64,000 nucleotides of DNA from an uncultured Lachnospiraceae bacterium (GTDB taxonomy: Bacteria > Bacillota > Clostridia > Lachnospirales > Lachnospiraceae), in NCBI GenBank assembly GCA_964571555.1, contig CAZNCH010000001.1:1265-65264 (forward strand). The letters are read 5' to 3'. Shown one piece after another: positions 33,406-60,720 of the stretch (the first letter of the stretch is position 1; each line of letters opens with the position of its first letter). The translations under genes were made by a program, and so were the position numbers. Below the pieces are notes generated by a model. That model did no database searches. It was not told where the DNA came from and saw nothing but the letters and a program-made list of their open reading frames with translations.

Positions 33406-34680
33406 ATGGCACAGATTGTCGACTTCCTGAAAACAAAATACGGAACGGACTACGCGAAGAAGCCGGAGAAGACAGGGAAATCCGAAAAAGCGGAGCGCCG
33501 CGTCCAGGCGGAACAGCGCGAGGCGGAAGGAAGAAGCGAGCACTACAAGAAGAAACTGATCCGGCACCGCCTGACGATTTTTTATAAGATTCTCATCGGT
33601 ATCGCTGTTCTTGCAATGATTGGCGGCGTCGTATATTTCAGCAGGAAACGCCAGGTATATACGGATTACGATACCTTGCGCAGAGTTGATTTCGACGCGG
33701 TCTATACCGCGAATTACAGAAGTCTGAACGGAATCGTTTTGCGGTACAGCAAAGACGGCGCATCCGCATTCAATATGGAAAACAGTATGATCTGGAACCA
33801 GACGTATGAAATGCAGAACCCGATGATAGATTCCTGCGGAGATTATGCCGCAATCGGAGATTATAAAGGCACAAAAATTTACGTGTTCAACAGTGAAGGC
33901 ATGCAGGGGCAGATCGATACGACCTTGCCGATGCAGAAATTCTGTGTTTCGGGGAACGGAAATGTGGCTGCGGTACTCGAAGAAAACGAGGTCACCTGGA
34001 TCAAACTGTTTAACAAAGCGGGACAGCTGGTTGCCAATGATCGTACTACAATGGCGAAGAGCGGGTATCCGGTACGTGTGGCGATTTCAAATAACGGGAT
34101 TCTACTGGGGATTTCCTTTTTAAGGATTGATACGGGCGTGCTGTCTTCTTCCGTGGCTTTTTATAATTTCGGCGCGGTCGGGCAGAATGAAATCGATAAT
34201 CTTGTGAGCGGTTATGATTTTCCGGAAACGGTCGTCTCGGACGTAGAATTTATGAATGACAAAACGGCATTTGCGGTCGGAGACAATAAAATGATTCTTT
34301 TCGAGGGCGCACAGAAGCCCGAACAAAAGGCGGCGGTTCCGATAGAGGGAGAGATTCGCAGCGTCTATTACGGGCAGAATTATATTGGGCTTATTTTTCA
34401 GGACGAGACCGGAGAAGCACAGTATCGAATGGATGTTTACGATACGGAAGGAAAGCTCGCGCAATCGTTTTATTTCAGTCTGGATTATCAAAGCGTTCTT
34501 TTCCACAAAGATACTGTGATGATTTACAACAGCGACGAGTGTCTCCTGTACAATATGCAGGGCGTGGAGAAGTTCCACGGTTCCTTCCACCGTTCGATTC
34601 TTACGGTGGCGCCGACAGCCGGTCCTTTCAGATATCTTCTGGTGACCGGAAATGAGATGGAGGAGATTCAACTGAAATAA
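33406..34680 (+). CDS. membrane-anchored hypothetical protein with a repeat-rich (beta-propeller-like) ectodomain, DUF5711-like
   Basis: Basic N-terminal cytoplasmic tail, a single TM helix (IFYKILIGIAVLAMIGGVVYF), then ~330 aa of beta-rich repeats. The family name is recalled, not verified. Confidence 0.5.
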   Translation: MAQIVDFLKTKYGTDYAKKPEKTGKSEKAERRVQAEQREAEGRSEHYKKKLIRHRLTIFYKILIGIAVLAMIGGVVYFSRKRQVYTDYDTLRRVDFDAVYTANYRSLNGIVLRYSKDGASAFNMENSMIWNQTYEMQNPMIDSCGDYAAIGDYKGTKIYVFNSEGMQGQIDTTLPMQKFCVSGNGNVAAVLEENEVTWIKLFNKAGQLVANDRTTMAKSGYPVRVAISNNGILLGISFLRIDTGVLSSSVAFYNFGAVGQNEIDNLVSGYDFPETVVSDVEFMNDKTAFAVGDNKMILFEGAQKPEQKAAVPIEGEIRSVYYGQNYIGLIFQDETGEAQYRMDVYDTEGKLAQSFYFSLDYQSVLFHKDTVMIYNSDECLLYNMQGVEKFHGSFHRSILTVAPTAGPFRYLLVTGNEMEEIQLK

Positions 34681-35360
34681 TGAATTATTTACTGATTGCG
34701 GTGATCGTATTGATCGGTATGTGCGTGCTGCAAGGATACCGAAAGGGTTTCCTGCGGATCATGGTTTCTCTGCTCTGGATCGCACTGGTGATTGCGGCTG
34801 TTTTCTGGCTGTCCCCCTACGTGAGCGATTTCCTGATCCATCATTCGAGCGCATACGACAAGGTGGAAGAGAAAATCACGACATTGGTTGAGATCGGCGG
34901 GCATGTGGATCTTACGGATGAAACGGTACAGGAAGAATCCATAGACGCCATGGAATTGCCGGGACTTCTGAAAAGCGCGCTTCATCAGAACAACACGGAA
35001 GAAGTGTACAGGGAATATATGGTGGAGGCGTTTTCTGGCTATATTTCCGGTTTCTTAACGCGGCTGGTATTGAAAGCGGCATCCTTTATCGGGGTCTTCC
35101 TGCTGGTCGGACTTCTCGCTTTTATTGTAATGCGAGCCGCCGATCTGATTTCCAGAATCCCGATCATCAAAGGTTTCAATCGTCTCCTGGGCGTTGCCGC
35201 AGGACTCGTTCTGGCGCTTGCGATTATTTGGGTGTTTTTCTTTGTTGTGGTGATGTTTCTTGGCAGCGGTTTCGGCGATCGTCTCATGGCGGATATCAAG
35301 CAGAGTGCGTTTCTTACCTTTCTGTTTGACCAGAATCTTCTGATGGAATTGATCATGTAG
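34680..35360 (+). CDS. CvpA family membrane protein
   Basis: The start overlaps the previous stop (TAATG). The N-terminal pattern ...LIGMCVLQGYRKGFLRIMVSLL and 4 TM helices fit the CvpA family. Confidence 0.6.
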   Translation: MNYLLIAVIVLIGMCVLQGYRKGFLRIMVSLLWIALVIAAVFWLSPYVSDFLIHHSSAYDKVEEKITTLVEIGGHVDLTDETVQEESIDAMELPGLLKSALHQNNTEEVYREYMVEAFSGYISGFLTRLVLKAASFIGVFLLVGLLAFIVMRAADLISRIPIIKGFNRLLGVAAGLVLALAIIWVFFFVVVMFLGSGFGDRLMADIKQSAFLTFLFDQNLLMELIM

Positions 35361-35438
35361 CCGGAGCAAAGATTTGGATACAAATGACAAAGTTCCTGTT
35401 ATAATGGGAGTATCAATCGGATCTTTATGGAGGTGGAG

Positions 35439-35843
35439 ATGATGTTTTGTAAGAATTGCGGACAGACAATGGAGGAAGGCAGAAAGTTCTGCCCAAACTG
35501 CGGTGCGCCCGTGGATGCCCCGGCTGAGCCGTCCGGCGCTCCGGTGTATGCCGAAAGATATGAACCTGCAATGAGTTCAACCCCCGTTCTGGTGTGGGGT
35601 ATCATCGGATTGGCGTTCTCCTGCAGTTTTTATTTCAGTTTTCTGGGAATTATCTTCTCGGCAATCGGTCTGAGTAAAGCGAAGGCGTTTTTTGCCGCCA
35701 ACGGGCAGCTTTTCGGAAAGGCAAAGGTCGGCAAGATTCTTGCCACGGTCGGTTTGATTGTAAGCATTGTCATGACCGGACTTGCCGTTCTCCTTATCGC
35801 CGTGATCGGCGCGGCGGCGGTGAGCGGTCTTGGCAGCCTTTGA
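35439..35843 (+). CDS. zinc-ribbon / DUF4190-like small membrane protein
   Basis: N-terminal CxxC...CxxC zinc ribbon (FCKNCGQTMEEGRKFCPNCG) followed by two TM helices. GGAGGTGGAG RBS. Confidence 0.6.
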   Translation: MMFCKNCGQTMEEGRKFCPNCGAPVDAPAEPSGAPVYAERYEPAMSSTPVLVWGIIGLAFSCSFYFSFLGIIFSAIGLSKAKAFFAANGQLFGKAKVGKILATVGLIVSIVMTGLAVLLIAVIGAAAVSGLGSL

Positions 35844-35859
35844 TATTTTGGGAGATTCC

Positions 35860-36765
35860 ATGGAGAGAACCGGAAAACCAAGAAAAACCGGAAAGATCTT
35901 ACGGACTTTCTGTGTTTCCGTGGCGGTCTACATCCTTTTGGGCGTGGCCGCCACGGAACTTATATTTGGAATGATTTTCGCAAGAAAATCCGAATTCCTG
36001 TCCTTCCCGTCGCAGTTTTTCGTAGATGCCCGAACGGTTGAATTTCCCGTCGAGGAGCGTCAGCTCACAGGGTATTTGATCGGGGAGAGCGGAGAAAAGG
36101 GTGTCATTGTGATCGCACACGGCATGGACGCTTCCGCGGAAAGTTTTGCGCGAGACGCCAGACGTTTTGAAGAGTCGGGCTACTGCGTTCTGGTTTTCGA
36201 CGGAACCGGCTGCGGGGAGAGCGAAGGGCGGAGCCAGGTCGGCCTGGGTCAGCGCAGAAAGGATCTGATCGGGGCACTCGACTTCCTCGATGCATGCAAG
36301 CTGCGTTCTTCTTCCTACTTCCTCTACGGTCACAGCGCGGGGGGCTATGCCGCGGCGTCTCTATGTAATGACGAGCGGGTTGCCGCCGTTGTTTCCGTAG
36401 CGGCACCCGATTCCACGACGGAGACCATGACCGCCTTCGGAGTTGCAAGAGTCGGAGCGCTCGGTTATCTTGGCTATCCGTTCCTCTTTCTGAAAGAGCG
36501 TCTCCTGTTTGGCGCAGAGGGAACAAGGTCGGCGCATGAATGGCTTCGGGAGAGCGGGACGCCCGTTCTGGTTCTGGAAAGTGAGAGAGACAGGACAATT
36601 CCGCCGCACTTAGGGATAATGAGCCATGCAGAGGAAATCGGCAATCCGCAGGTTTTCTATCAATGGATCGAAACAAAGGGAAGCAACGCGCACACAGAGG
36701 TCCTGGAGGACAGCGGCGCCCTTGCGGAAGCCTTTTTTGCAAAGATCGAACCGTTTGCAGAATAG
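35860..36765 (+). CDS. membrane-anchored alpha/beta hydrolase (paralog 1 of 3)
   Basis: N-terminal TM helix, HG oxyanion region (VIVIAHGM), GHSAGG nucleophile elbow, and later Asp and His. Same family as 41796 and 46679. Confidence 0.7.
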   Translation: MERTGKPRKTGKILRTFCVSVAVYILLGVAATELIFGMIFARKSEFLSFPSQFFVDARTVEFPVEERQLTGYLIGESGEKGVIVIAHGMDASAESFARDARRFEESGYCVLVFDGTGCGESEGRSQVGLGQRRKDLIGALDFLDACKLRSSSYFLYGHSAGGYAAASLCNDERVAAVVSVAAPDSTTETMTAFGVARVGALGYLGYPFLFLKERLLFGAEGTRSAHEWLRESGTPVLVLESERDRTIPPHLGIMSHAEEIGNPQVFYQWIETKGSNAHTEVLEDSGALAEAFFAKIEPFAE

Positions 36766-36825
36766 CGGATTTTGCGGTAGAATAAATTAGTTTGTGTTCA
36801 TTGTTTTTGGAAGGCGGTTTTGGGA

Positions 36826-38778
36826 ATGGAGCGGCTGCAAAATATTGGAGATTATCGTACGGTCAATGCTTATGTAGCCGCGAAACTGGAACGGTTTTTC
36901 GGAATGGAGCGCACGTTTCGCGCATTGTTTCAACTGATGTTTTCCGAGAAAGAGAACGTCATGTATGAGAAGAGCGTCGGCTTTCAAGTTGAAACCACGA
37001 CTTACGGAGAAGCGTTCACGAAAACCTGTGAACTCGCAGGAATTCTGCAAGCGCGCCTGAAAGGGGTTCCGCGGGATTCCGTCATCGGTCTTTATCTGGA
37101 AAACGATCTGTCCTGGATTGAGTTCTTCTGGGCAATTCTTGCCGCGGGTTATCGTCCCCTCCTGCTGAATATCCGACTCGATGATGAAGTTCTGACAGAG
37201 GCATTGGAGGCGGCAGGCGCATGTGCGGTCATTTCTGCGCAGAAGTCCTTTGCGCCGTGCTTCATGCTGTCTGCAGCGGAGTTGTTGCATACGGAAACAA
37301 AGCCGCTCTTTACGGAAGCGGAATTTGGCAGCGAAATTCTGGTGATGTCTTCCGGAACAACACAGACGCCCAAGCTCTGTGCTTACACCGCAGAGGCGTT
37401 TTATTATCAGATCGGGGATTCCGCGGCGATCATCAGAAAAAGCACGCGGATCAAAATGCATTATCACGGACAGTTAAAGCAGTTGACCTTTCTTCCGTTT
37501 TATCACGTATTCGGTCTGATTGCGGTCTATATCTGGTTTGCCTTTTTCTCGAGAACTTTCGTGCATTTGTCGGATTTCAGCGCGGCAACGATTCTTCAGA
37601 CGATCAGAAAACACGAGGTAACGCATATCTTTGCAGTTCCGATGTTCTGGAACACAGTCTATGCGCAGGCGCTGAAAACAATCCGTGATAAGGATAACGA
37701 AACACAAATCAGGTTTCAAAAGGGAATGGCTCTTGCAAAAAAGATCGGCGATGTTCCCGTTTTGGGAGCATGGTTTACGAAGCGCGCTTTCCGTGAGATC
37801 AGAGAGAAGTTGTTCGGCGAGAGCGTCTGTTTTATGATTTCCGGCGGAAGTGAAATTTCAACGGAAGTGCTGACCTTCTTCAATTCGATCGGCTATCATC
37901 TGACAAACGGGTATGGCGCTACGGAAATCGGAATCACCTCCGTAGAGCTCAGAAACAGGAGAAAACCCCGAAACAGCGGTGCCGTCGGACGACCGCTGAG
38001 ATCAGTCGAGTACCGGATTAACGAAGCAGGAGAATTGCTTGTGAGGGGGAAAACAACCGCATCTTATCTGATTGAACGGACAGAAAAGAAGCCCAATGAA
38101 GGCTGGTTCAACACGCACGATCTCGCGGAAGAAAAGAACGGATATTATTATATTCTCGGACGAAAGGATGATCTGGTCGTTTCGGAAACGGGAGAGAATT
38201 TGAACCCGAATCTGATTGAGAGTCTGCTTTCCGAAGGCTTGAGCAACGAGGTCTGTCTGATCGGCCCCAAAGAGAACGGAGCGGTTGTTCCCACCTTGCT
38301 GGTATCGACCGGAAAGAGACTGTCGGAAGAAGAATTTAACGCCTTGCAGAAGCGCTATGTCGAGAAACTTCATGCAACGCACTTAAACGGAGAGATCCGA
38401 AAGATTTTCTTTACGAAGGAACCGCTGATCTATGAAGACGAGATCAAACGGAACCGGACACGTCTGAAAAGAGCTTATCTGGCGGGAAAACTGCCGGAAA
38501 TGAAACCTTATCGGGAGCGCTGCGCCGAACAGCGCAGCCAAACGTTTCGTTACGTGCGGGGACTCTTTGCGGAGGTGCTCCATTGCAAAGAAGAGGAAAT
38601 TACGGGAGAAGGCGACTTCTTTTTAACATACGGCGGAAACAGCCTGGCATATTTTACCGTGATTGCTATTCTGCAGGACGAACTGGGGATTTCTTTCCCG
38701 ATGTCCGAGGGAAAAGGGCTGAATACCGTGAATGAAATCTGCGACTTTATTGAGGAACGGAAAGCAGATGAGAATTAG
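36826..38778 (+). CDS. AMP-dependent (acyl-adenylate forming) ligase fused to a C-terminal carrier-protein domain
   Basis: Adenylation core motifs MSSGTTQTPK, GYGATE and GRKDD. The C-terminal ~80 aa carry the phosphopantetheine attachment motif GGNSL. Confidence 0.8.
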   Translation: MERLQNIGDYRTVNAYVAAKLERFFGMERTFRALFQLMFSEKENVMYEKSVGFQVETTTYGEAFTKTCELAGILQARLKGVPRDSVIGLYLENDLSWIEFFWAILAAGYRPLLLNIRLDDEVLTEALEAAGACAVISAQKSFAPCFMLSAAELLHTETKPLFTEAEFGSEILVMSSGTTQTPKLCAYTAEAFYYQIGDSAAIIRKSTRIKMHYHGQLKQLTFLPFYHVFGLIAVYIWFAFFSRTFVHLSDFSAATILQTIRKHEVTHIFAVPMFWNTVYAQALKTIRDKDNETQIRFQKGMALAKKIGDVPVLGAWFTKRAFREIREKLFGESVCFMISGGSEISTEVLTFFNSIGYHLTNGYGATEIGITSVELRNRRKPRNSGAVGRPLRSVEYRINEAGELLVRGKTTASYLIERTEKKPNEGWFNTHDLAEEKNGYYYILGRKDDLVVSETGENLNPNLIESLLSEGLSNEVCLIGPKENGAVVPTLLVSTGKRLSEEEFNALQKRYVEKLHATHLNGEIRKIFFTKEPLIYEDEIKRNRTRLKRAYLAGKLPEMKPYRERCAEQRSQTFRYVRGLFAEVLHCKEEEITGEGDFFLTYGGNSLAYFTVIAILQDELGISFPMSEGKGLNTVNEICDFIEERKADEN

Positions 38779-39409
38779 ATTGGTTCACTTATTTACAAAA
38801 ATCACGGCGTGGCCGGTGCAGCGGCTCTGTTTCAGAACGAAGATCTATTATGAGGACAGAGCGGCGCAGGGGCGCAGGATCCGGGGCAGCGCCATCGTGG
38901 TATCCAATCATACGTCCATTTACGACTATGCGGTCTATCTGTTTGTGTTTTTCGGCAGAACGCTTCGCGCCCAGATGGCGGAGGTGCTGTTCAAAAAGAG
39001 AATCCTCGGCAGGTATTTAAAATGCATGGGCGGGATCCGTGTCGATCGGAATATCCATGATATGGGATTCATGGCGGAGTCGGAACGGATTCTGAAACAG
39101 GGCGGCGCGGTGATGATTTTTCCGGAGGGGCGACTGCCGCGAAAAGAGGAAACAGAGTTGCTTCCGTTCAAGACAGGGGCGGCATTTCTTGCTTTGTCGA
39201 CCGGCGTTCCCGTGATTCCCGTCTATACGAACGGCTCGTATTTTTGCAGAAAATGCGCGTGTGTGCTGATTGGCAAGCCGATGCTGCTCTCGGAATATGT
39301 CGGGGCGTCAACGGATCCGAGGGAGAATATCAGCGCAGCCAACAGAGCTTTGCGCGCGCGGATTGCGGCACTGGGAGAACTGCTGGATGAGAGAACAAAA
39401 GAGAGTTAA
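38768..39409 (+). CDS. PlsC/LPLAT family acyltransferase 1
   Basis: HX4D motif (SNHTSIYD) and FPEGR block. Its start overlaps the preceding gene by 11 nt. Confidence 0.8.
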   Translation: MRIRLVHLFTKITAWPVQRLCFRTKIYYEDRAAQGRRIRGSAIVVSNHTSIYDYAVYLFVFFGRTLRAQMAEVLFKKRILGRYLKCMGGIRVDRNIHDMGFMAESERILKQGGAVMIFPEGRLPRKEETELLPFKTGAAFLALSTGVPVIPVYTNGSYFCRKCACVLIGKPMLLSEYVGASTDPRENISAANRALRARIAALGELLDERTKES

Positions 39410-40040
39410 GCGTTTTTCTTTCGAATATTTTTTCTATGATTTTGTCAAGGTAACGGCTGCGCTGCCGGGGCTGGTTGCTTTTCGACCGAAGTATTTGTTC
39501 GAGAACGAAAAGGCGAAGCGGCGGATTCGGGGCGGTGCGATCCTGATCGGAAACCACAACGGATATTTTGATCCGATCGGCATGATGCTCTGCGTCTATT
39601 ACCGCAGACACCGTTTTGTCTGCACCAAGGAGTTTTTCGAAGGCAGAAAAGGATTTTTCTTTCGGAACTTTCGGTGTATTGCGATCGATCGCAATAATTT
39701 CAGCGTGGATGCATTTCGGGAGATTGTTGAGAGCCTGCAAAAGGGTGAGATCGTCAGCATGTTTCCGGAGGGCAGGATTATTTTTGACGATGCACTTGCC
39801 GCTTTCAAATCCGGCATGGTGTTGATGGCTATGAAGAGCGGTTGTCCGATCGTTCCGATTTATGTGTTGAAGCGAAGAAACTATTGGGAACGACTGATCA
39901 TGGCAGTCGGCGAACCGGTCGACGTGAGGGAAGCTTTAGGCGGGAAATCCCCGCTTTCCGGCATGGACGCCGTTTCGGAACTGCTGCACGAGAAAGAAGT
40001 GAAATTGAAGAAGTTGTGCGAGGAGGCGCGAGGGAAATGA
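39387..40040 (+). CDS. PlsC/LPLAT family acyltransferase 2
   Basis: HX4D motif (GNHNGYFD) and FPEGR block. Its start overlaps the preceding gene by 23 nt. Confidence 0.8.
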   Translation: MREQKRVKRFSFEYFFYDFVKVTAALPGLVAFRPKYLFENEKAKRRIRGGAILIGNHNGYFDPIGMMLCVYYRRHRFVCTKEFFEGRKGFFFRNFRCIAIDRNNFSVDAFREIVESLQKGEIVSMFPEGRIIFDDALAAFKSGMVLMAMKSGCPIVPIYVLKRRNYWERLIMAVGEPVDVREALGGKSPLSGMDAVSELLHEKEVKLKKLCEEARGK

Positions 40041-41545
40041 AAACAAAAGGGAGAGAGGTGTTCGAAAAATATACAACGCCCGAAACGATGGAACGGATCA
40101 GGGAAGTTGCGACCGTATCCCGGATGTGGGAGCATTGTCTTGATGCGTATAGCGATAACGAAGCAATCAGCGATAACGGCGTGTCTTACACCTTTGCGCA
40201 AATAGAGGCGCGTGCGTCCCGCCTGCGGGGGCTGCTCTTAAAAGAACATGACGCGGCAAAGCGGATCGGACTCTATATGACGAATTCCGTCAGTTTCGCG
40301 GAAGCCTTTCTTGCGATTGTAACCGCCGGCTTCACTGCGGTCATACTGCCGCCGCAGTTGGATGATAAAGCCGTATTCGGCTGCTGCATGAAGTTCGACA
40401 TCGGAACGCTGCTGTATCTTCCTTCGATGGAAGAAAAGGTACAGACGGCGGCGAAAATGGCGCCCGGGATCAAGTTGTTTCCTGCTGATGTTAAGACGTT
40501 GGAAACAGCGCAGATTCAATCCTGTGACGCGACGACGCCGTGCGTTGTGATGTTTACCGGGGGAACAACGGGACAGAGTAAGGGCGCGCTGTTGAGCAAC
40601 GGTGCGGTGATGCAGGGCGTGGTCAACGGCTGCTACGGATATCGGGATGTTTTCGAGCAGAGGTATTTTCTGGTGCTTCCGCTTTCCCATGTCTTCGGTT
40701 TGATTCGGAATCTGCTGACTTCATTCTATACGGGCAGTTCCCTGTTTATCTGCAAAAACAATATGGATATGTTCCGCGACATCGCGATGTTCAAACCCAC
40801 CGTTTTGGTTGTGGTTCCGGCGCTCGCGGAAATGGCGCTGAAACTTTCCAAACAGTTTGGCAGGAATATGCTCGGGCCCGACATGAAATATGTGATCTGC
40901 GGCGCGGCAGCCGTTGCGCCGTATCTGCTCAGCGAGTACCGCAAGTTCGGGATCAGCCTGTTTCCGGGATACGGTTTGACGGAATCTGCGAATCTGGTGT
41001 CCGGAAATCCGGAAACGGTGGAGAAGCCGGACGCCGTCGGGATTCTGTACCCGAATCAGGAATACCGAATCGAGGAAGGCGAGCTCTGGCTCAGGGGAAG
41101 CAATATCATGGACGGTTACATCGGAGAGCCGGAAACCGGCATGGAGGACGGCTGGTTCAAAACCGGCGATCTGGTGAAGGTCGATGCGGACGGTTTCCTC
41201 TATATTGTCGGCAGGAAGAAAGAAGTGATCGTTCTGGCAAACGGTGAAAATGTATCGCCTGCGGAAGTGGAAGCGAAGTTCAACCGTCTGAAGTTCGTGC
41301 AGGATTCTCAGGTATTCGAGGACGTGACCGAGGGCGGAACGCATATTCTTGCGCTGGAAATCGTGCCGAGAGTCTCTGAACTGAACGACGTTGCGCAGGA
41401 AGATCGGAACACCTATATGATGGCGGCGCTGGAACAGGTCAATGCGACGCTGCCGGGTTATCAGAGGGTCAACCGCATGGAAATACGGGAAACGGATTTC
41501 GAAAGAACGCCGAGTATGAAGATTGTGAGATATCATAAATGCTGA
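40037..41545 (+). CDS. AMP-binding acyl-CoA/acyl-ACP synthetase-like ligase
   Basis: Motifs FTGGTTGQSKGA, GYGLTE and GRKKE. ATGA start/stop overlap with the preceding gene. Confidence 0.85.
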   Translation: MKTKGREVFEKYTTPETMERIREVATVSRMWEHCLDAYSDNEAISDNGVSYTFAQIEARASRLRGLLLKEHDAAKRIGLYMTNSVSFAEAFLAIVTAGFTAVILPPQLDDKAVFGCCMKFDIGTLLYLPSMEEKVQTAAKMAPGIKLFPADVKTLETAQIQSCDATTPCVVMFTGGTTGQSKGALLSNGAVMQGVVNGCYGYRDVFEQRYFLVLPLSHVFGLIRNLLTSFYTGSSLFICKNNMDMFRDIAMFKPTVLVVVPALAEMALKLSKQFGRNMLGPDMKYVICGAAAVAPYLLSEYRKFGISLFPGYGLTESANLVSGNPETVEKPDAVGILYPNQEYRIEEGELWLRGSNIMDGYIGEPETGMEDGWFKTGDLVKVDADGFLYIVGRKKEVIVLANGENVSPAEVEAKFNRLKFVQDSQVFEDVTEGGTHILALEIVPRVSELNDVAQEDRNTYMMAALEQVNATLPGYQRVNRMEIRETDFERTPSMKIVRYHKC

Positions 41546-41802
41546 GGAACAGAAGTGAAATATTAGAACAGTTGAAACAGGTGCTGCGCTCTGCGGATGA
41601 GAGCAAGGCGGCAATCATCGAAGCCTGCACGGAAGAAGCGAATCTGGCGACGGATTTGGGTCTTTCCTCGGTTGGGCTGCTCTATGTGGTCATCTCCATC
41701 GAGGAACAGTTCGGGATTCGATTTGAAAACGTGGGAATTGCCGATTTTGTTACCGTCAGAGACGTGGTAGATTACATTGAGGGACGCTCGGGCACATGCT
41801 GA
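41539..41802 (+). CDS. acyl carrier protein
   Basis: 87 aa with the attachment-site motif DLGLSSVG. Overlaps both neighbours by 7 nt. Confidence 0.8.
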   Translation: MLRNRSEILEQLKQVLRSADESKAAIIEACTEEANLATDLGLSSVGLLYVVISIEEQFGIRFENVGIADFVTVRDVVDYIEGRSGTC

Positions 41803-42734
41803 TCTTGAGAATAGCGCTGACGATATTCGTCTTGTATGTGATTTTCCTTTTAGGTCCGTCGATCGTGATGTATTTCAGGCTTTTTGTTCCGCGGTCGGGA
41901 ACGCCTTATGAAGAGAGGAATCTGCGCGGAACTTATCTTGAGAAGCACAGGGAACGGATACGGGAAGACAGCGCATATTTCAAAACGCAGAAATGCGAAG
42001 AGGTCAAGGTGATCTCGCAGGACGGCGTCAGGCTGTACGGAGAGTTCTACGGGGAGAATCATTCCGAAGTCGTATTATGCGTGCACGGGTACTTATCGAC
42101 GCCGCTCAACTGCTTTTCAACCATGGGGAAGTTCCTGCTGGAAGACGGCTACGGCGTGCTTCTGATTCATCAGCGCGGAAACGGAAAAAGCGAAGGCAGG
42201 CGGGGCGGCTTCGGGTTGATCGAATGTAATGATCTTTCGCTTTGGATTCGAAGTTTACGTGAGCGCGGAGCGAAACACATCTTCCTCGCGGGCATGTCCA
42301 TGGGCAGCGCAACGATCTGCTATGCGTCTCCGTTCTTAGAACAGCCGCCGGTTGCCGGCATGATCCTTTGCTGCGGTTTTGTTTCGCCCTATCGGCTGCT
42401 ATCGGATGCCTGCGATGAAAAGCATCTGCCGACGCGCCTGCTCCTGCCCCATATCGAATTTCTGGCAAGGTGGCGCTTAAAGATTGACCTTAAGGAGACG
42501 ACCGATGCGTCTCTTGAAAGAAACCGGATCCCGTCGCTTTTCGTGCACGGAACAGAGGACGCTTCGGTGCCCCTCTCAGACAGCAGGAGTCATTATGAGC
42601 ATTGCAGCGCAGAGAAACGCCTCTGCATTGTGGAAGGCGCCGGTCATTCCGATCTTTTTCTGATCGGAGAGGACGCGGGTCGCGCCGTAAAAGAATTTGT
42701 GGAACAACACAGCGAACGGAGAATGTCAAATTGA
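41796..42734 (+). CDS. membrane-anchored alpha/beta hydrolase (paralog 2 of 3)
   Basis: N-terminal TM helix, GMSMGS nucleophile elbow, and HGTEDASV / GAGHSD acid and His motifs. Confidence 0.75.
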   Translation: MLILRIALTIFVLYVIFLLGPSIVMYFRLFVPRSGTPYEERNLRGTYLEKHRERIREDSAYFKTQKCEEVKVISQDGVRLYGEFYGENHSEVVLCVHGYLSTPLNCFSTMGKFLLEDGYGVLLIHQRGNGKSEGRRGGFGLIECNDLSLWIRSLRERGAKHIFLAGMSMGSATICYASPFLEQPPVAGMILCCGFVSPYRLLSDACDEKHLPTRLLLPHIEFLARWRLKIDLKETTDASLERNRIPSLFVHGTEDASVPLSDSRSHYEHCSAEKRLCIVEGAGHSDLFLIGEDAGRAVKEFVEQHSERRMSN

Positions 42735-43666
42735 GTGACTTTGTAATTATGGCAGATTCAACCTGCGATCTGCCGGAGGAATTCCAGAAGAAGTATGATG
42801 TTATTGTGCTGCCGGGGCACGTGATTTTACCGGACAAATCAGAGGTTCTTTCCAGACCGAAATGGGAATATTTTGAGAGAGAGTCTTTCTATGAGCAGCT
42901 TCGGAACAATCCCGACGGCTTCGTTACGGCGCCGCCGAATGTCAGCGAATTCACGGCGGCATACGAGGAATACGCAAAACAGGGGAAGGACATCCTCTGC
43001 CTGACAATATCAAGCGGGATCAGCGGTGCATTTAATTTCAGCACCCTTGCCAGAGAAGCGGTGTTAAGGAAATATCCCAATGCCAGAATCATCAATATCG
43101 ATTCGATGCGATTCGGTCCCGGCTTCGGTCTGATGGTTGTGTATGCCGCAACGCTGCGCAGCGAAGGGTTGTCCATCGAAGATGTGGCGCAGCAGATTGA
43201 AACGAAGAAGAATACTTTTCATCAGGCGGGATGGCTCGACGATCTGTCTTTCGTCGCCAAGAAGGGAAGAATCACACACGCCAAAGCCTTTTTCGGTTCT
43301 CTTGCCGGGGTGAAGCCGATCGGAGAATTCGACTATAACGGTCTGACGACGGTGATCGGAAAGGCGAAGGGCGCCAAATCCGCCTATGCGGTTCTGCTGC
43401 AATATATCGAGCAGACCATCGTGGATCCGAAGAACCAGATCATTTTTATTGCGCAGTCCAACCGGCTGAAGCAAGCCGAACAATACAAGCAGATGATCCT
43501 GGAGAAATTTCATCCGAAGGAGATCTATATCAACGATGTATTCCCGTCCTGCGGCGTGAATATCGGTCCGGGGCTGATGGCGGCATACTATATGGGAACA
43601 CCGATATCCAAAGATCTTTCCAGAGAAAGGGAGATCCTTGAAAAGGCAATGAACCAAGGGGGTTGA
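42731..43666 (+). CDS. DegV family fatty-acid-binding protein (FakB-like)
   Basis: DegV N-terminal pattern (V)IMADSTCDLP and the family length. The TTG at 42731 (TTGA overlap, GGAGA RBS) is preferred. The ATG at 42749 is the alternative start. Confidence 0.8.
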   Translation: MSDFVIMADSTCDLPEEFQKKYDVIVLPGHVILPDKSEVLSRPKWEYFERESFYEQLRNNPDGFVTAPPNVSEFTAAYEEYAKQGKDILCLTISSGISGAFNFSTLAREAVLRKYPNARIINIDSMRFGPGFGLMVVYAATLRSEGLSIEDVAQQIETKKNTFHQAGWLDDLSFVAKKGRITHAKAFFGSLAGVKPIGEFDYNGLTTVIGKAKGAKSAYAVLLQYIEQTIVDPKNQIIFIAQSNRLKQAEQYKQMILEKFHPKEIYINDVFPSCGVNIGPGLMAAYYMGTPISKDLSREREILEKAMNQGG

Positions 43667-43668
43667 AG

Positions 43669-45015
43669 ATGAAGAAATTACAAAAGAAAAGCGAACTGAT
43701 ACTCTATGCGATTTCCGGTATGGGAATCAACATGCTGAATCTGATGATGGCGTCGTATTTGTGCAGTGCGCTGCTGATCGGCGGCTTTGGCGAGACGGCG
43801 ATTCCGTATCAGACCTATCTGCAGAAGGATCTGATTCTTCCGGCGGTCTGGGCGGTTTTTGCCCTGCTTGCCAAGATTCTGGACGGTGTGATTGATATTC
43901 CGATGGCGGCCTTTACGGATAATTTGAAGAGCAAATGGGGGAGAAGACGCCCTGCGATCCTGTTAGGACTGGTTGTGACGGTAATTTCCTATCTTCTCTT
44001 TCTGCTGGTGCCGAATGCGAGCGGCGCGACCCTTGGCAACACGATCTATTACGGCGTCGTTCTCTGCGTTTTCTATTGTTTCTATACGCTGACCATGGTG
44101 ACCTATTATGCGACCTTTACGGAAATTGTCGACACGACGGAGAAACGGAATATTCTCTCCAATGTGAAGTCGGTGTGTGATGTCGCATATTTCATTCTCG
44201 GCTATGTTGCGGTACGCATCCTTTTAAACGGGGTCAATATACGGAAGGTGGCATTGATTGTGCTGCCGATCGCGCTGACGATGATCATTCCGCTGTTCAT
44301 GATCAAAGAGCATTCGACGCTTGCGGGCGAAGCGGAATGCGAAGTGCCGGTCAATCTGATGCAGTCCCTGGTTTTCACCCTGAAAAACAAGACTTTCATC
44401 CTCTGGATGCTGACCTTTTCGTTCATGACGTTTAGCGTACAGCTCTTCCTTGGCGGAATCAATGAATATTTCTCCTTCGTGGGAATGAATATGATCCTGA
44501 TTATGATGTCGGCGTTTGCGCCTGTGCCGCTGACACTGCTCCTGTTCCGCTTTCTGATCCGGAAATACGGTTTCGGCTTCGCTTTCCGTTATGTGCTGGT
44601 CATCTTCTGCGTTTCGATGACGTCCATGGGTCTGATCGGCTTTATGGCGGCGGGAACACTAAAATCCGTACTTGCAATCCTCTCCGGACTGATTGCGTCC
44701 TTTGCCGTGGGCGCGATGTTTTCCGTTGCCTATTCCGTACCGGCGCAACTTGCGGCGGAAGAAGAGGAGAAGACGGGGATCGGCAATTCCGCGATGTATT
44801 TTGCGGTGCAGGGGCTGTTCGCAGGCGTTGCCTCCGGAATTGCAACGGGGGTTGTGTTGACTGCGCTGAAAGGTTCGCAGAACCACCCCACCGATGCAAT
44901 CAAATATATGACGCTGATCGCGGCGGCAGGCTGTCTGTTATCGTTGCTCGTTTCGAAGACGCTGCCGGAATCGGTGGTTCAAATGGGCAGGAACGGGGAA
45001 ACGAAAGACGCATGA
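43669..45015 (+). CDS. MFS transporter of the glycoside-pentoside-hexuronide (MelB/MFSD2-like) type
   Basis: 12-TM profile and the GPH loop 2-3 motif DGVIDIPMAAFTDNLKSKWGRRRPAIL. Confidence 0.75.
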   Translation: MKKLQKKSELILYAISGMGINMLNLMMASYLCSALLIGGFGETAIPYQTYLQKDLILPAVWAVFALLAKILDGVIDIPMAAFTDNLKSKWGRRRPAILLGLVVTVISYLLFLLVPNASGATLGNTIYYGVVLCVFYCFYTLTMVTYYATFTEIVDTTEKRNILSNVKSVCDVAYFILGYVAVRILLNGVNIRKVALIVLPIALTMIIPLFMIKEHSTLAGEAECEVPVNLMQSLVFTLKNKTFILWMLTFSFMTFSVQLFLGGINEYFSFVGMNMILIMMSAFAPVPLTLLLFRFLIRKYGFGFAFRYVLVIFCVSMTSMGLIGFMAAGTLKSVLAILSGLIASFAVGAMFSVAYSVPAQLAAEEEEKTGIGNSAMYFAVQGLFAGVASGIATGVVLTALKGSQNHPTDAIKYMTLIAAAGCLLSLLVSKTLPESVVQMGRNGETKDA

Positions 45016-46667
45016 AAACAAGAAGAATCAGCGGACGGCAGTTCGAACGGATGGTTCGGAACGGACTGGCGAATTTAAGCGAATACGAGACCAAACTGAA
45101 CGCGCTGAATGTTTTTCCCGTGGCGGACGGAGACACCGGAACGAATATGATCGCTACGTTAGCCGGCGGGATTGCTGCAGCCAAAAGCAACGAGCATGCG
45201 GGTCTTTACCTGAAATCATTGACGGACGGAATGCTGCTCGCTGCCAGAGGGAACTCGGGCGTGATCCTGTCACAGCTGTTTCGGGGATATTATCGGGCAC
45301 TCTCCAAATGCCCCATCATCGGGATAGGAGAATTCAGAAACGCATTGATTCACGGATACCGTTCGGGCTATGACGCTGTAGTCAGACCCGTGGAAGGAAC
45401 GATCTTAACGGTTGCACGGGAGGGAATCGAGCATATCCGCGCACAGATCGGAAGGAATACGACGCTGGAAGAATTGCTCTCCATGTATGTCGCTGAAATG
45501 AGAAAGAGTCTCGCGCAGACGCCGGAACTGCTTCCGGAATTGAAAAGCGCAGGCGTCATAGACAGTGGGGCGCTCGGTTACATTGCGGTCGCAGAGGGGA
45601 TGCTGAAATATCTGTACGGAGAACTCGTAGAGATGAAGCAGGAGAATGCGGAGACAATCGGCATGGAAAAGAACGAAAGCGTCGTGGACTATTCGGTCTT
45701 TCACGAAAACAGTCCTTTTGAAGAAGGTTATTGTGTTGAGTTTCTGTTGCAGTTGATGCGTTCTGAGCAATATCTGCAGAACTTTCGATTGCGGAAATAC
45801 ATTGAGGATCTGAATGATTTCGGCGAATCGATCGTGGCGGTGCAGGATGAGAGCCGTGTCAAGGTGCATATCCATACGCTGAAACCAGCCAAGGTGCTTT
45901 CTCTCAGCCAGGATTACGGAGAATTCCTGACCTGTAAGATTGAGAATATGCAGTTGCAGCACAACGAACAGCTGAAGAGGAAAGAGATCAGCAAGCCGAG
46001 ATCGGAATTCGTTATCGTTTCCATGGCGGATACGAATCGAATGAAGCAGATCCTTTTTGATCTCGGCAGCGATTACGTGATCCCCGGCGGTGCCGGAATG
46101 AATGCTTCCGTGCAGATGTTTTTGGACGCGTTTGAGGAAGTGAACGCAGAGACGATCGTTGTGCTTCCCAATGATGCGAACTCGATCTTCTCCGCCAGAC
46201 ACGCGGCGAAGATCTATGATCGGGCGAAGATTGTAATTCTGGAAACGAAGTCCGTTCCGCAAGGCTATTACGCACTGGCGATGGATGTTCCCGACAGCAG
46301 GGATATCAATTTCCGAATTTCACAAATGAAAAAGGGCATGACGGAAACGGAAACACTGTTTGTCAGCAAAGCGTCCAAGCCCTATCGGAGCGATGTTTTC
46401 TCCTGCGAGGAGGGTGCAAGGATCGCCATCGTCGGGGAAGAAGTGGTTGCCGAAGGAGCAGATAACGTGGACGCCTTCCTCAAAGGGCTGTCCTTTGTGG
46501 ACGGGATTGGGGAGAAGGAAGTCTGCGTGATTTTCAGAGGAGATTCGGAAGCCGGATATGAGGAAGCAAGGCTGCAAAATGCGGTCAATGACGCCTATCC
46601 GGATCTGGAAGTGGAATTTATTGACGGCGGCTCCAAACTGTACAGTTGGATGGCTGCCATTGTATAA
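45012..46667 (+). CDS. DAK2/DhaL-domain protein of the YloV/FakA (fatty acid kinase ATP-binding subunit) family
   Basis: The N-terminal DhaL motif LNVFPVADGDTGTNM and the ~550-aa three-domain length match FakA/YloV. ATGA overlap with the MFS gene. Confidence 0.75.
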   Translation: MKTRRISGRQFERMVRNGLANLSEYETKLNALNVFPVADGDTGTNMIATLAGGIAAAKSNEHAGLYLKSLTDGMLLAARGNSGVILSQLFRGYYRALSKCPIIGIGEFRNALIHGYRSGYDAVVRPVEGTILTVAREGIEHIRAQIGRNTTLEELLSMYVAEMRKSLAQTPELLPELKSAGVIDSGALGYIAVAEGMLKYLYGELVEMKQENAETIGMEKNESVVDYSVFHENSPFEEGYCVEFLLQLMRSEQYLQNFRLRKYIEDLNDFGESIVAVQDESRVKVHIHTLKPAKVLSLSQDYGEFLTCKIENMQLQHNEQLKRKEISKPRSEFVIVSMADTNRMKQILFDLGSDYVIPGGAGMNASVQMFLDAFEEVNAETIVVLPNDANSIFSARHAAKIYDRAKIVILETKSVPQGYYALAMDVPDSRDINFRISQMKKGMTETETLFVSKASKPYRSDVFSCEEGARIAIVGEEVVAEGADNVDAFLKGLSFVDGIGEKEVCVIFRGDSEAGYEEARLQNAVNDAYPDLEVEFIDGGSKLYSWMAAIV

Positions 46668-46678
46668 GAGGTGGAAGT

Positions 46679-47623
46679 TTGAACATTGCTTTTATCATTT
46701 CGGCGATCATTTTGCTGCTCGCGGTTTTCTTCGTGATCGCCATGTCGCTGGTTCTCTACAACATCATTCTGGTCAGAACATCGGAGCTGAAATGGGGACG
46801 GGAATGCAGCATCACGGAGGATGCGGAATATCAGCGCATGTATGATATCGGGCTTGCCTGGGAACAGCATCACCGCGATTGCAAGTCGGAGGTTTTCGTA
46901 CAAAGCGACGGATTCAGACTTGCAGGGGAATATTTTGACTTTGGCTCTGACCGCGCGGTGATCATTGTGGCGGGACGAACGGAGTCCTGTCTCTATTCCT
47001 ACTTTTTCGCGGAGCCTTACCGCGTTGCCGGCTACAATGTTTTGGTCATTGATAATCGCGCACATGGCTTGTCGGAGGGGAAGCGCGTCTCGCTGGGCTT
47101 CAAGGAATACAGGGATCTTCTGAAATGGGGCGAACTGCTGCATGAGGAAAAGGGGAACGCACATCTTATGCTGCACGGAATCTGTATCGGGTCTTCGGTT
47201 GCGCTGTTCACGCTCACCGATCCGTCGTGTCCCGCCTACTGGGACGGAATGGTTGCAGAGGGAATGTACACCACGTTTGCGGAGTCCTTCAAGAATCACA
47301 TGATTCAGGATCACAGACCGCTGTTTCCGATCTTCTATGTGACAATGCTGTGGGTGCTTTTGCTTTCCGGCGCCAACGTAATGACGGACGGTCCTCTGAA
47401 GCGGCTGCCGCTGCTGAAGAAGCCGATTCTCTTTCTGCACAGCAGAGAGGATGTATTTTCTCTGCCGGAGAAGGCGGAACTGTTATATGAAAAGTGCAAG
47501 GCGCGAAAAGAAATGGTCTGGTTTGAAACCGGCGCGCATTCCAGACTCCGCATCCGTCATTTAGAGGCGTATGATGCGGCGGTTCGTGCATTTGCGAAAA
47601 GACTGAGGAATGAGAATATTTAA
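46679..47623 (+). CDS. membrane-anchored alpha/beta hydrolase (paralog 3 of 3) with Cys in the nucleophile elbow
   Basis: TTG start after GAGGTGGA and an N-terminal TM helix. The elbow reads G-I-C-I-G (Cys codon TGT at 47183-47185) where the paralogs have Ser. Asp (HSREDVF) and His (GAHSR) are retained. Confidence 0.7.
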   Translation: MNIAFIISAIILLLAVFFVIAMSLVLYNIILVRTSELKWGRECSITEDAEYQRMYDIGLAWEQHHRDCKSEVFVQSDGFRLAGEYFDFGSDRAVIIVAGRTESCLYSYFFAEPYRVAGYNVLVIDNRAHGLSEGKRVSLGFKEYRDLLKWGELLHEEKGNAHLMLHGICIGSSVALFTLTDPSCPAYWDGMVAEGMYTTFAESFKNHMIQDHRPLFPIFYVTMLWVLLLSGANVMTDGPLKRLPLLKKPILFLHSREDVFSLPEKAELLYEKCKARKEMVWFETGAHSRLRIRHLEAYDAAVRAFAKRLRNENI

Positions 47624-51004: not shown

Positions 51005-51012
51005 GTGGAGAA

Positions 51013-53865: not shown

Positions 53866-53866
53866 G

Positions 53867-54697
53867 ATGGAATATATGATAGAAACCAGACAGATTCATA
53901 AAAGTTTTCCTCTCGGCAACAAAGAAACGCTGGAAGTCCTGAAAGGGATCGATCTCAAAATCGAAAAGGGAAAACTGACGATTCTGAAAGGAAGATCCGG
54001 CTCGGGGAAAACAACGCTGTTAAATATTCTAAGCCTGCTGGATGCACCGACAAAAGGTGAACTTCTGATCGACGGCGAGGAAATGAAAGAGAAAAGCGAG
54101 GTCGAAAAAGAGAAGATCCGAAGATATCATATCGGCTTCGTCTTCCAGTCGGTTGCGCTGCTGCCGATCCTTTCCGCTTATGAAAATGTGGAGTTCGGCA
54201 TGAGGCTTGCCGCATATGAAGGAAACATGGACGAAAGGATTCGAAATGTCTTAAGGATCGTCGGACTGCAGAAGCGCATGGGTCACATGCCCGCGCAGAT
54301 GTCCGGCGGTGAACAGCAGAGAGTCGCAATTGCGAGGGCGGTCGCCCACAGTCCCAAGATCATCTTCGCAGACGAGCCGACAGGGGCGCTGGATACGGAT
54401 TCCGGTCTTGCGATCATGAAACTGTTTCGGGAGCTGATTGAGAAAGAGGGCATCACGATTGTCATGACAACGCACGACCCGAATCTGATGCAGCTTGGAG
54501 ACGTCGTCTATGAAATGGAAGACGGGGAACTGACGCTGATTGCCGAAGAAAACGAAGCGGAACCGATTGAGGAGACTCTTTCGGAGACAGCAACAGAAGA
54601 AAAAACAGAAAAAAGGGAAACAGTGAACAAAGAAACAGACGCAACAGAAAAGGAAACGGACAATGGAGCAGAAGAAGGAAGAGATTCTGGTTTGTGA
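53867..54697 (+). CDS. ABC transporter ATP-binding protein 1 (MacB/LolD type) with an acidic low-complexity C-terminal tail
   Basis: Walker A GRSGSGKTT, signature MSGGEQQRVA, Walker B IFADEP. The ~50-aa tail is rich in E, T and K. Confidence 0.9.
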   Translation: MEYMIETRQIHKSFPLGNKETLEVLKGIDLKIEKGKLTILKGRSGSGKTTLLNILSLLDAPTKGELLIDGEEMKEKSEVEKEKIRRYHIGFVFQSVALLPILSAYENVEFGMRLAAYEGNMDERIRNVLRIVGLQKRMGHMPAQMSGGEQQRVAIARAVAHSPKIIFADEPTGALDTDSGLAIMKLFRELIEKEGITIVMTTHDPNLMQLGDVVYEMEDGELTLIAEENEAEPIEETLSETATEEKTEKRETVNKETDATEKETDNGAEEGRDSGL

Positions 54698-58351: not shown

Positions 58352-58367
58352 AAAGAGAGGTAGTTCC

Positions 58368-59468: not shown

Positions 59469-59483
59469 CACGGGGGACTACAG

Positions 59484-60719: not shown

Positions 60720-60720
60720 G

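Follow-up and report, generated by a model that had tools for sequence, protein, structure and literature searches.

What does a bacterium do with two acyl-activating ligases, two acyl carriers and two small acyltransferases encoded side by side? The question is raised by a 64-kb stretch from an uncultured Lachnospiraceae bacterium (assembly GCA_964571555.1, contig CAZNCH010000001.1; the whole stretch is called the window hereafter). An earlier note on this DNA had singled out positions 36826-42734, and proposed that two parallel lines, each with its ligase, carrier and acyltransferase, deliver two distinct acyl chains to two positions of one acceptor. We find that these genes form the front half of a larger conserved unit, spanning approximately 35427-47623 and thus reaching beyond 36826-42734 on both sides, which also contains membrane-anchored hydrolases and genes of the fatty acid kinase families. 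In our estimate there is an even chance that this operon salvages fatty acids, and probably lysolipids, by re-esterifying them onto glycerolipids.

A conserved string of lipid-handling genes

Every gene of the operon region lies on the + strand, and start sites were compared with independent gene calls and with the sequence. Domains were assigned with Pfam gathering scores and NCBIfam cut-offs, and residue conservation was read from alignments of 60-80 orthologs for most proteins. Synteny was followed by tblastn on 80 fetched loci, and gene presence by a census with hidden Markov models (HMMs) on the 62 loci that extend to FakA. The unit contains the following genes (aa, amino acids; TM, transmembrane; ACP, acyl carrier protein; LPLAT, lysophospholipid acyltransferase; MFS, major facilitator superfamily).

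35427..35843, +: Zn138, small membrane protein with a zinc ribbon and a DUF4190/CCC motif (Pfam Zn_Ribbon_1 and DUF4190; NCBIfam CCC_membrane)
35860..36765, +: H1, membrane-anchored alpha/beta hydrolase with Ser nucleophile in GHSAG (Hydrolase_4, E 1.6e-14)
36826..38778, +: LigT, 650 aa, adenylating ligase with a fused carrier (AMP-binding, E 7e-41; PP-binding, E 6e-12)
38768..39409, +: AT1, 213 aa, PlsC/LPLAT-type acyltransferase (PF01553, E 3e-22)
39387..40040, +: AT2, 217 aa, PlsC/LPLAT-type acyltransferase (PF01553, E 9e-23)
40037..41545, +: Lig2, 502 aa, stand-alone adenylating ligase (AMP-binding, E 1e-52, and AMP-binding_C_3)
41539..41802, +: ACP, 87 aa, stand-alone carrier (PP-binding, E 1.5e-6)
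41796..42734, +: H2, membrane-anchored alpha/beta hydrolase with an N-terminal TM helix and Ser nucleophile in GxSMG (Hydrolase_4, E 4e-20)
42731..43666, +: DegV/FakB-like fatty-acid-binding protein (DegV, E 1e-58; TIGR00762)
43669..45015, +: MFS_2 (GPH-type) transporter, an optional member (PF13347, 92.9 bits)
45012..46667, +: FakA/YloV-type fatty acid kinase catalytic subunit (Dak2, FakA-like_M and FakA-like_C; TIGR03599)
46679..47623, +: H3, membrane-anchored alpha/beta hydrolase-fold protein with Cys nucleophile in G-I-C-I-G

The two ligases, two carriers and two PlsC-type acyltransferases announced for 36826-42734 are all there: each quoted motif was located, and the Pfam matches are far beyond chance. 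A sixth gene of this interval, H2, had been passed over, though the interval ends exactly where H2 ends. From LigT onward, successive genes overlap by 4-23 nucleotides, and stop/start overlaps run from LigT to H3; the DegV/FakB gene starts with a TTG, placed in a TTGA overlap with the H2 stop. This indicates that the genes LigT to H3 make up one translationally coupled operon. A promoter and terminator scan gave only a weak promoter-like site at 36754-36783, 5' of LigT (15 promoter-like sites versus 12.0 +/- 3.7 in shuffles, and 31 terminator-like sites versus 16.7 +/- 5.0).

We then compared this arrangement among relatives. In the tblastn comparison, the gene order was LigT-AT1-AT2-Lig2-ACP-X-H2-DegV-(MFS)-FakA-H3, with the zinc-ribbon protein and H1 often coming next, where X is a gene of the LRAT family described below and genes such as MFS and X are optional. 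This order recurs in 62/62 related loci that extend far enough. The HMM census gave the following counts.

LigT, AT1, DegV, FakA: 62/62 loci
ACP, AT2: 61/62 loci
H2, H3: 60/62 loci
Lig2: 56/62 loci
gene X (LRAT): 55/62 loci
MFS: 36/62 loci
H1: 20/62 loci

Identity is 45-70% for every operon member, and the operon is conserved vertically across several orders. Across related loci, no conserved gene was found upstream of LigT. Three FakA homologs (51-52% identity) that had been chosen by similarity alone all lie in the same gene string, according to independent gene calls. The LigT protein itself has more than 2000 database relatives, the best being 46-56% identical, about 640-650 aa long and built of the same two domains; none carries a name beyond "AMP-binding protein". 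In a collection with one genome per species, LigT relatives are encoded at 562 sites. Most of these are in metagenome-assembled genomes (MAGs) from gut or rumen, and the taxa represented are Oscillospiraceae, Ruminococcus, Lachnospiraceae, Christensenellales, Acutalibacteraceae and Mageeibacillus. An exhaustive profile search retrieved 696 LigT-family clusters at 50% identity (E <=1e-30), and the closest cluster relative is in a Lachnospiraceae MAG (LigT identity 56%).

A full-text literature search found no description of this gene set, nor any linkage of fak genes with ligases, carriers and acyltransferases. The operon is thus an uncharacterised and widely conserved one, in which known enzyme families enter a new combination. 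All its conserved members come from lipid-handling families, and the simplest model combines acyl release, activation and re-esterification.

The stoichiometry of two ligases, two carriers and two acyltransferases put forward earlier holds in the window and in 55/62 relatives, but Lig2 is missing in 6/62, and one locus has neither Lig2 nor ACP. As both acyltransferases are kept in 61/62 loci, a one-to-one pairing of ligase, carrier and acyltransferase is contradicted.

The Zn138 protein appears only loosely associated with the operon, a homolog being found beside the cluster in 28 loci, usually after H3. Zn138 and H1 precede LigT in the window and in the closest relative (L001), and follow H3 in most relatives, which looks like a circular permutation of the gene order.

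Fatty acid kinase, hydrolases and an LRAT-type enzyme

The DegV/FakB-like protein scores 202.8 against TIGR00762 (DegV, cut-off 99.7), and the FakA-like protein 463.7 against TIGR03599 (YloV, cut-off 396.1), with all three FakA domains (Dak2, middle and C-terminal) present. Both window proteins are below the cut-offs of the staphylococcal equivalogs FakA_VfrB and FakB1. Judging by these family scores, a fatty acid kinase pair, FakA plus FakB, is encoded in the operon. The earlier idea that the system works independently of the housekeeping PlsX/Y/C acyl-phosphate route is contradicted by this gene content, because FakA and DegV/FakB belong to the same coupled gene string in 62/62 loci.

The three hydrolases H1, H2 and H3 all have an N-terminal TM helix. 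H1 is 301 aa long in the window, and its GHSxG motif is kept in 17/17 sequences. Its Lys and Arg residues have a median count of 6 on the N-terminal side of the TM helix and of 2 on the C-terminal side; by such positive-inside counts, the catalytic domain of H1 is predicted to face outward, and those of H2 and H3 to be cytoplasmic. In 20/62 relatives, H1 comes after H3. In H2, Ser168, Asp255 and His284 are invariant (64/64 sequences). Both H1 and H2 have a GxSxG nucleophile elbow, and H3 does not: it carries GxCxG, with the Cys present in 61/61 sequences and C169, D258 and H287 invariant. In the AlphaFold2 (AF2) model of H3 (predicted local distance difference test, pLDDT, 93.8), this Cys sits at the nucleophile elbow, between strand 162-168 and helix 170-180. 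The Foldseek neighbours of H3 are the archaeal Pf2001 esterase, monoacylglycerol lipases and the TM-anchored phospholipase A PlaF (6I8W), and the residue of esterase 5G59 aligned to the H3 Cys is the nucleophile Ser. H1, H2 and H3 share the alpha/beta hydrolase fold with PlaF-type phospholipase A and monoacylglycerol lipases, but H3 differs from them by its invariant Cys in place of the nucleophile Ser, and sequence identity to any solved structure is at most 25%. H3 is also the best-conserved protein of the operon (55-66% identity). Its invariant Cys suggests a thioester acyl-enzyme, as in a transacylase, rather than a simple esterase.

In 55/62 loci, gene X of the LRAT family (PF04970) lies between ACP and H2 (for example L002:14968-16011 and L008:14961-15395). 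Its His23 and the Cys of its NCEH motif are kept in 50/50 sequences. In about half of the loci, the LRAT domain is fused to a phosphopantetheinyl transferase (PPTase) of Sfp/ACPS type, and in the others the PPTase part is degenerate or missing; we know of no described LRAT-PPTase fusion. This gene has been lost from the window and from a few relatives. Altogether, the hydrolases and the LRAT-type enzyme point to salvage or remodelling, and not to a private de novo route.

Two further observations concern hydrolases. In the metagenome sample ERR13731100, whose LigT is 100% identical to that of the window, the H1 gene (L081:1034-1940, corresponding to window 35860-36765) is split into two open reading frames of 169 and 112 aa. 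It is intact in the window and in ERR13731080, so that the split in ERR13731100 is either a strain-level frameshift or an assembly error. Outside the operon, a fourth Hydrolase_4 protein (17783-18715, 310 aa, full-length, E 2e-42, lysophospholipase-L2-like) is encoded beside metG.

Two diverged acyltransferases

Both acyltransferases are clear members of PF01553, with 79.2 bits for AT1 and 80.9 bits for AT2 (cut-off 23), and carry the expected motifs (NHTSIYD and FPEGR in AT1, NHNGYFD and FPEGR in AT2). The catalytic residues claimed for them stand up in alignment: the His and Asp of HX4D are invariant in the 79 sequences of AT1 (H60, D65) and in the 78 of AT2 (H58, D63). AT1 has four intact LPLAT blocks, and R106 of block II as well as P131, E132 and R134 of block III are invariant too (79/79). 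In AT2, the block II Arg is found in only 54/78 sequences, and at the block III position 52 sequences have His, 9 Arg and 7 Lys. AT2 is relaxed at the positions with which other members of the family hold the phosphate of the acceptor. Neither protein has a TM segment, and AT1 is probably peripheral at the membrane. The sole match of both in PDB sequences is the PlsC of T. maritima, 5KYM (E 3e-9 for AT1, 5e-8 for AT2). In NCBIfam, they come closest to the acyltransferase portion of Aas-type acyl-ACP--phospholipid O-acyltransferases and to the AGP_acyltrn domain.

AT1 and AT2 are only 29% identical, and LigT and Lig2 25%. By these values, the members of each pair are old, diverged paralogs, and divergence within the ligase pair and within the acyltransferase pair is compatible with two separate jobs. 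The proposal of two lines serving two positions survives in part, as a subordinate hypothesis: AT1 and AT2 do differ, and only AT1 keeps the phosphate-binding residues, but a strict pairing is contradicted by the loci that lack Lig2.

One way of assigning the two jobs is to suppose a de novo route to phosphatidate that is complete in itself. In this route, LigT and AT1 would acylate the sn-1 position of glycerol-3-phosphate, in the manner of PlsD, and Lig2/ACP with AT2 the sn-2 position, independently of the housekeeping ACP and of PlsX/PlsY/PlsC. In favour of such a route, the window has an intact pair each of ligases, carriers and PlsC-type acyltransferases, the last two differing from one another, and AT1 conserves its block II and III arginines. 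There is also a precedent within the PlsC family, the Clostridium butyricum protein PlsD, which can replace PlsB. However, FakA/FakB, whose product feeds PlsY, are encoded in the same operon in 62/62 loci, and Lig2 is dispensable in 6/62 of them, ACP being gone as well in one, while both acyltransferases stay. Moreover, the Arg that a lysophosphatidate acceptor would call for is not conserved in AT2, and the route leaves the three hydrolases and the LRAT gene without a role. We thus consider a de novo phosphatidate route quite improbable.

Dedicated carriers

Both carriers pass the PP-binding cut-off of 20.8 bits (PF00550), with 46.2 bits for the T (thiolation) domain of LigT and 28.8 bits for ACP, and the modifiable Ser that had been supposed in each is conserved. 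In LigT, Ser606 is present in 80/81 sequences, the remaining one having a gap, and it starts helix 606-620 of the model; in ACP, Ser44 of the motif DLGLSSVG is invariant (69/69 sequences). Among NCBIfam housekeeping ACPs, the best match of ACP is PRK12449 with 43.7 bits (cut-off 70), TIGR00517 giving 33.2 (cut-off 70.45), and the protein stays below every ACP cut-off. On these scores, the stand-alone ACP is distinct from the housekeeping AcpP. As the LRAT gene of relatives is fused to a PPTase of Sfp/ACPS type in about half of the cases, the carriers are to be taken as real phosphopantetheinyl carriers. With the LRAT/PPTase gene absent from the window, the carriers of the window therefore need a PPTase encoded elsewhere.

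Ligases of the ANL superfamily

LigT and Lig2 score 140.7 and 179.8 bits against the Pfam AMP-binding family (PF00501, cut-off 29.9), and both thus belong to the ANL superfamily, as intact enzymes of its acyl/aryl-CoA-ligase type. The adenylation (A) domain of LigT covers approximately residues 53-530, with SGTTQTPK at residue 176, GYGATE at 362 and GRKDD at 445, and is followed by the T domain at 576-642, with GGNSL at 603. Lig2 has GGTTGQSKGA, GYGLTE and GRKKE. In LigT, motifs A3, A4, A5 and A8, Lys541 of A10 and the carrier Ser606 are kept in 80-81/81 sequences, and A7 reads T-[H/R/G]-D rather than TGD; in Lig2, core motifs A3, A5, A7 (TGD) and A8 and Lys495 of A10 are kept in 66-68/68. LigT is longer than Lig2 by approximately 50 residues between A3 and A5.

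The A4 motif is LPFYHVFGL in LigT and LPLSHVFGL in Lig2. It is invariant, of the acyl-CoA-synthetase type (CoA, coenzyme A), and has no FDxS Asp, the residue that contacts the alpha-amino group in amino-acid A domains. An amino-acid A domain is therefore ruled out for both ligases, as had been supposed. Scores against the amino-acid adenylation family TIGR01733 are 50 and 98 bits, versus a cut-off of 317. D-alanylation of the DltA/DltC type, which the pairing of a 502-aa ligase with a carrier of about 80 aa brings to mind, was also rejected: no DltA family is among the 25 best of 96 NCBIfam matches of Lig2, A4 lacks the amino-acid Asp, and the unit contains neither DltB nor DltD. A classical nonribosomal peptide synthetase (NRPS) or polyketide synthase was excluded in turn, as Pfam detects no condensation (C) domain, ketosynthase (KS) or PF00975 thioesterase; no gene of 35427-47623 has a C domain. 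The statement that the region lacks C, KS and thioesterase domains was thus correct for the first two, but for the last it is true only of the PF00975 type, H2 being an alpha/beta hydrolase.

Fatty acyl-AMP ligases (FAALs) carry some 20 additional aa in their N-terminal domain, behind A5, and this insertion blocks the thioester-forming conformation. Between A5 and GELxxRG, LigT has 40 aa and Lig2 has 37 aa, too few to accommodate an extra 20 aa or so; the FAAL type is ruled out on this spacing, and not by alignment to a reference FAAL. No FAAL was seen among the top 50 Foldseek matches of the LigT model. Since the spacing excludes the insertion, LigT and Lig2 should manage the thioester-forming step.

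Which acid the ligases activate is less clearly indicated. Neither reaches any NCBIfam equivalog cut-off, the scores being far below; their best NCBIfam matches are a mix of MenE and several long-chain fatty-acid--CoA ligase families with similar scores, to which Lig2 adds the ligase portion of an Aas-type protein (PRK06814, E 3.5e-35). In PDB sequences, the ligases match MenE, 4-chlorobenzoyl-CoA ligase, feruloyl-, oxalyl- and malonyl-CoA ligases and FadD13. With the LigT model (AF2, pLDDT 77), Foldseek matches didomains made of an A domain and a peptidyl carrier protein (A-PCP; McyG and the carboxylic acid reductase CAR) and MenE equally well. NCBIfam, the PDB sequence search, the AF2 model and Foldseek therefore gave generic ANL or A-PCP matches only, and no specificity. 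It is the genomic context that leads us to infer that the ligases act on fatty acids.

These matches leave some place for a reading in which the ligases activate, instead of long-chain fatty acids, another abundant acid of the gut or rumen, such as a dicarboxylic or phenyl-substituted one or a volatile fatty acid with a short or branched chain. The dedicated carriers would bear this acid, which would serve as a primer or be esterified to lipids, and FakAB would take care of the long chains. The best family and structure matches are indeed to MenE and to 4-chlorobenzoyl-, feruloyl-, oxalyl- and malonyl-CoA ligases, and not to long-chain FadD or AasS. A LigT relative is also fused to an alpha-oxoamine synthase (AOS), a family that includes BioF, which uses pimeloyl thioesters. 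Such a division of labour would explain how a Fak system and ligases coexist without redundancy. However, several long-chain fatty-acid--CoA ligase families are among the top NCBIfam matches with similar scores, known PlsC-type acyltransferases take long-chain acyl donors, and the operon has no KS that could take a primer. We hold this reading to be decidedly doubtful.

Longer relatives of LigT were limited to the fusion of A and T domains with an aminotransferase-fold AOS and to one protein with an unannotated tail, neither of which is informative on how carriers and acyltransferases pair. The fusion protein (P0349, L086:8001-11264, 1087 aa) joins a LigT-family A-T didomain to a class I/II aminotransferase-fold AOS. 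It is encoded by a lone gene beside rpsF-ssb-rpsR on a Firmicute contig, and may produce an amino ketone that is sphingoid-like or similar to 8-amino-7-oxononanoate (AON).

A proposed model of fatty-acid and lysolipid salvage

In the salvage model, membrane-anchored H1, facing outward, and H2 and H3, facing inward, would act like lipases, lysophospholipases or phospholipases A and free acyl chains from exogenous or membrane lipids; in most relatives, the LRAT/PLAAT-type Cys enzyme would join in this release. The free acid could then be activated in three ways. First, DegV/FakB and FakA would convert it into acyl-phosphate, the known donor for PlsY. Second, LigT would adenylate it and load its own fused carrier. 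Third, Lig2 would load the stand-alone ACP. AT1 and AT2, soluble or peripheral, would transfer the carrier-bound acyl groups to acceptor hydroxyls. The acceptor of AT1 would bear a phosphate, as do glycerol-3-phosphate, lysophosphatidate and lysophospholipids, and that of AT2 would be met by a more relaxed site. Where present, the MFS_2 transporter may import or flip a lipid-derived substrate. The sequences themselves show the domains, the intact catalytic residues and a conserved gene order; that the substrates are fatty acids and the acceptors glycerolipids, which carrier serves which acyltransferase, and which way the flux runs are our inferences.

Several observations weigh against this model. 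Three activation routes in one operon amount to a redundancy that it does not explain. As for the acyltransferases, TIGR00530 (PlsC proper) gives 65.9 for AT1 and 62.1 for AT2, below its cut-off of 102.95, and AT2 has no conserved Arg for an acceptor phosphate. The closest neighbours of the ligases in sequence and fold, namely MenE, the 4-chlorobenzoyl-, feruloyl-, oxalyl- and malonyl-CoA ligases, FadD13 and the A-PCP didomains of NRPS and CAR, do not single out fatty acids, and the substrate of the LigT relative fused to AOS could equally be a fatty or a dicarboxylic acid. The transporter is optional (36/62 loci); it has no PDB sequence match at E below 0.1, and no detectable similarity to LplT or to a solved transporter. 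Lastly, tblastn over all 64 kb did not find the LRAT/PPTase gene in the window.

A bolder version of salvage can be drawn, which we judge to have only a small probability. The operon would be a self-contained Gram-positive Lands-cycle machine, in which acyl chains of exogenous or host phospholipids and lysolipids are rebuilt into bacterial membrane lipids through a thioester relay (the LRAT Cys, the H3 Cys, and the phosphopantetheine of the fused and free carriers), without PlsX or the housekeeping ACP. In this relay, a carrier would receive its acyl group straight from a lipid or from acyl-phosphate, by the action of either the Cys-hydrolase or the LRAT domain. If true, such direct loading would explain why ACP persists in loci that have lost Lig2.

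The LigT operon is carried by members of Oscillospiraceae, Ruminococcus, Lachnospiraceae and Christensenellales of gut and rumen, anaerobes in which the uptake of dietary or host fatty acids and lysolipids is poorly known. Were the salvage model true, it would supply concrete genes for the use of exogenous lipids and for membrane remodelling in dominant gut Firmicutes, and a new route to acyl-carrier donors alongside the Fak pathway. This would bear on antimicrobials that target type II fatty acid synthesis (FASII), and on the effects of dietary lipids on the microbiome. Two enzyme classes, the alpha/beta hydrolase with a Cys nucleophile and the LRAT-PPTase fusion, are of interest in themselves.

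Comparison with known systems

The closest parallel is LplT/Aas, in which an acyl-ACP synthetase of ANL type and a PlsC-type acyltransferase using carrier-bound acyl groups likewise occur with an MFS gene alongside. Aas is peripheral and couples in-situ synthesis of acyl-ACP to acylation of lysophospholipids, and LplT-Aas has been reported only from Gram-negatives (PMC11416262). Aas-type proteins are the best or good NCBIfam matches of AT1, AT2 and Lig2. However, Aas is a single fusion of 719 aa, whereas the operon has separate genes, two ligases and two acyltransferases, and scores against the Aas equivalogs are low (25.9 and 22.8 bits versus 886 for PRK08043; 51 and 65 bits versus 1221 for PRK08633). 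Unlike LplT/Aas, the operon has dedicated carriers, one fused and one stand-alone, and the housekeeping ACP would not be used; also unlike LplT, its transporter is of the MFS_2/GPH type and optional, and the host is Gram-positive. By analogy, the operon could be a split, carrier-equipped Gram-positive functional counterpart of LplT/Aas joined to FakAB, a view for which we see as much chance of being right as of being wrong.

With the FakA/FakB-PlsX-PlsY-PlsC pathway of Firmicutes, the operon shares FakA/YloV and DegV/FakB, both above their family cut-offs, and acyltransferases of the PlsC family, which need acyl-ACP. It differs by the absence of PlsX and PlsY: acyl-carriers would come from ATP-dependent ligases acting on private carriers, and not from PlsX acting on AcpP.

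Soluble acyl-ACP synthetases offer another comparison. They are ANL enzymes that charge the phosphopantetheine of ACP with free fatty acids, for lipid synthesis or recycling (PMC12086093). Lig2 and ACP have the same two-part layout as AasS of Vibrio harveyi and cyanobacterial Aas; these enzymes use the housekeeping ACP, whereas LigT has its own T domain. The 22 PDB sequence matches of LigT do not include AasS, nor do the 60 best listed for Lig2.

Finally, the Oaa-type fatty acid amide pathway of gut Clostridia uses a stand-alone fatty-acid A domain and a dedicated ACP, from which the acyl group passes to a free-standing transferase (PMC13310621). A dedicated A domain and a dedicated ACP are thus common to both systems. 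The Oaa-type transferase, a condensation domain, joins the acyl group to amines as an amide, whereas the operon has no C domain and its transferases are HX4D O-acyltransferases of the PlsC family.

This precedent of A domain, ACP and C domain in gut Clostridia also lends some credit to a different reading of the operon, as a cluster for a specialised lipid or natural product. The A-T protein, Lig2 and ACP would load acyl groups, and the acyltransferases would attach them to a scaffold other than a phospholipid (a sugar, hydroxy acid, amino alcohol or glycolipid). The Cys protein H3 and the LRAT enzyme would be transacylases, the MFS protein or an adjoining pump would export the product, and FakAB would only supply or recycle fatty acid. 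The NRPS-like A-T architecture, the dedicated PPTase in about half of the relatives, the relaxed acceptor site of AT2 and the glycoside (GPH) type of the transporter would all suit such a cluster, and the invariant Cys of H3 recalls transacylating enzymes of the alpha/beta fold. In the window, moreover, a MacB-type efflux system follows the operon and is linked to it by overlapping codons. However, these efflux genes and the MFS gene are not conserved with the cluster, and no scaffold builder (C, KS, glycosyltransferase or aminotransferase) is encoded in the operon. Vertical conservation across several orders, at a housekeeping-like 45-70% identity and with FakA embedded, also speaks against this reading. 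We regard a specialised-lipid cluster as unlikely, and retain fatty-acid and lysolipid salvage as the favoured reading.

Genes around the conserved unit

Downstream of H3, the operon runs on through overlapping stop and start codons into the MacB-type efflux system (47610-55568), which comprises two HlyD-like adaptors (378 and 753 aa), a 950-aa FtsX/MacB permease and two ATP-binding cassette (ABC) ATPases. This linkage is not kept in related loci. Just 5' of the unit (33406-35360) are genes for a DUF5711 membrane protein (424 aa, E 5e-128) and for a membrane protein resembling CvpA, of colicin V production; they are common only to the closest relative, L001, and are probably outside the unit.

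Further upstream, a group of genes at 5414-11216 encodes an O-acyltransferase of the MBOAT family (5414-6964), a 503-aa protein without a Pfam match, an amine-oxidase/FAD protein and a PMT_2-type glycosyltransferase, and may be a set for cell-envelope modification. The MBOAT gene, 30 kb from the operon, is unrelated to the conserved set. In one related locus (L088), an MBOAT gene and an unannotated gene lie directly upstream of the LigT homolog.

Near the start of the window, a gene on the - strand (297-2153) codes for a MATE efflux transporter with a fused C-terminal GNAT acetyltransferase domain (618 aa). At its other end, 55643-63026 encodes a DUF6240 protein (902 aa), flagellin, FliS and a Tad-type T2SSE/T2SSF pair, the host being a flagellated bacterium of the Clostridium class.

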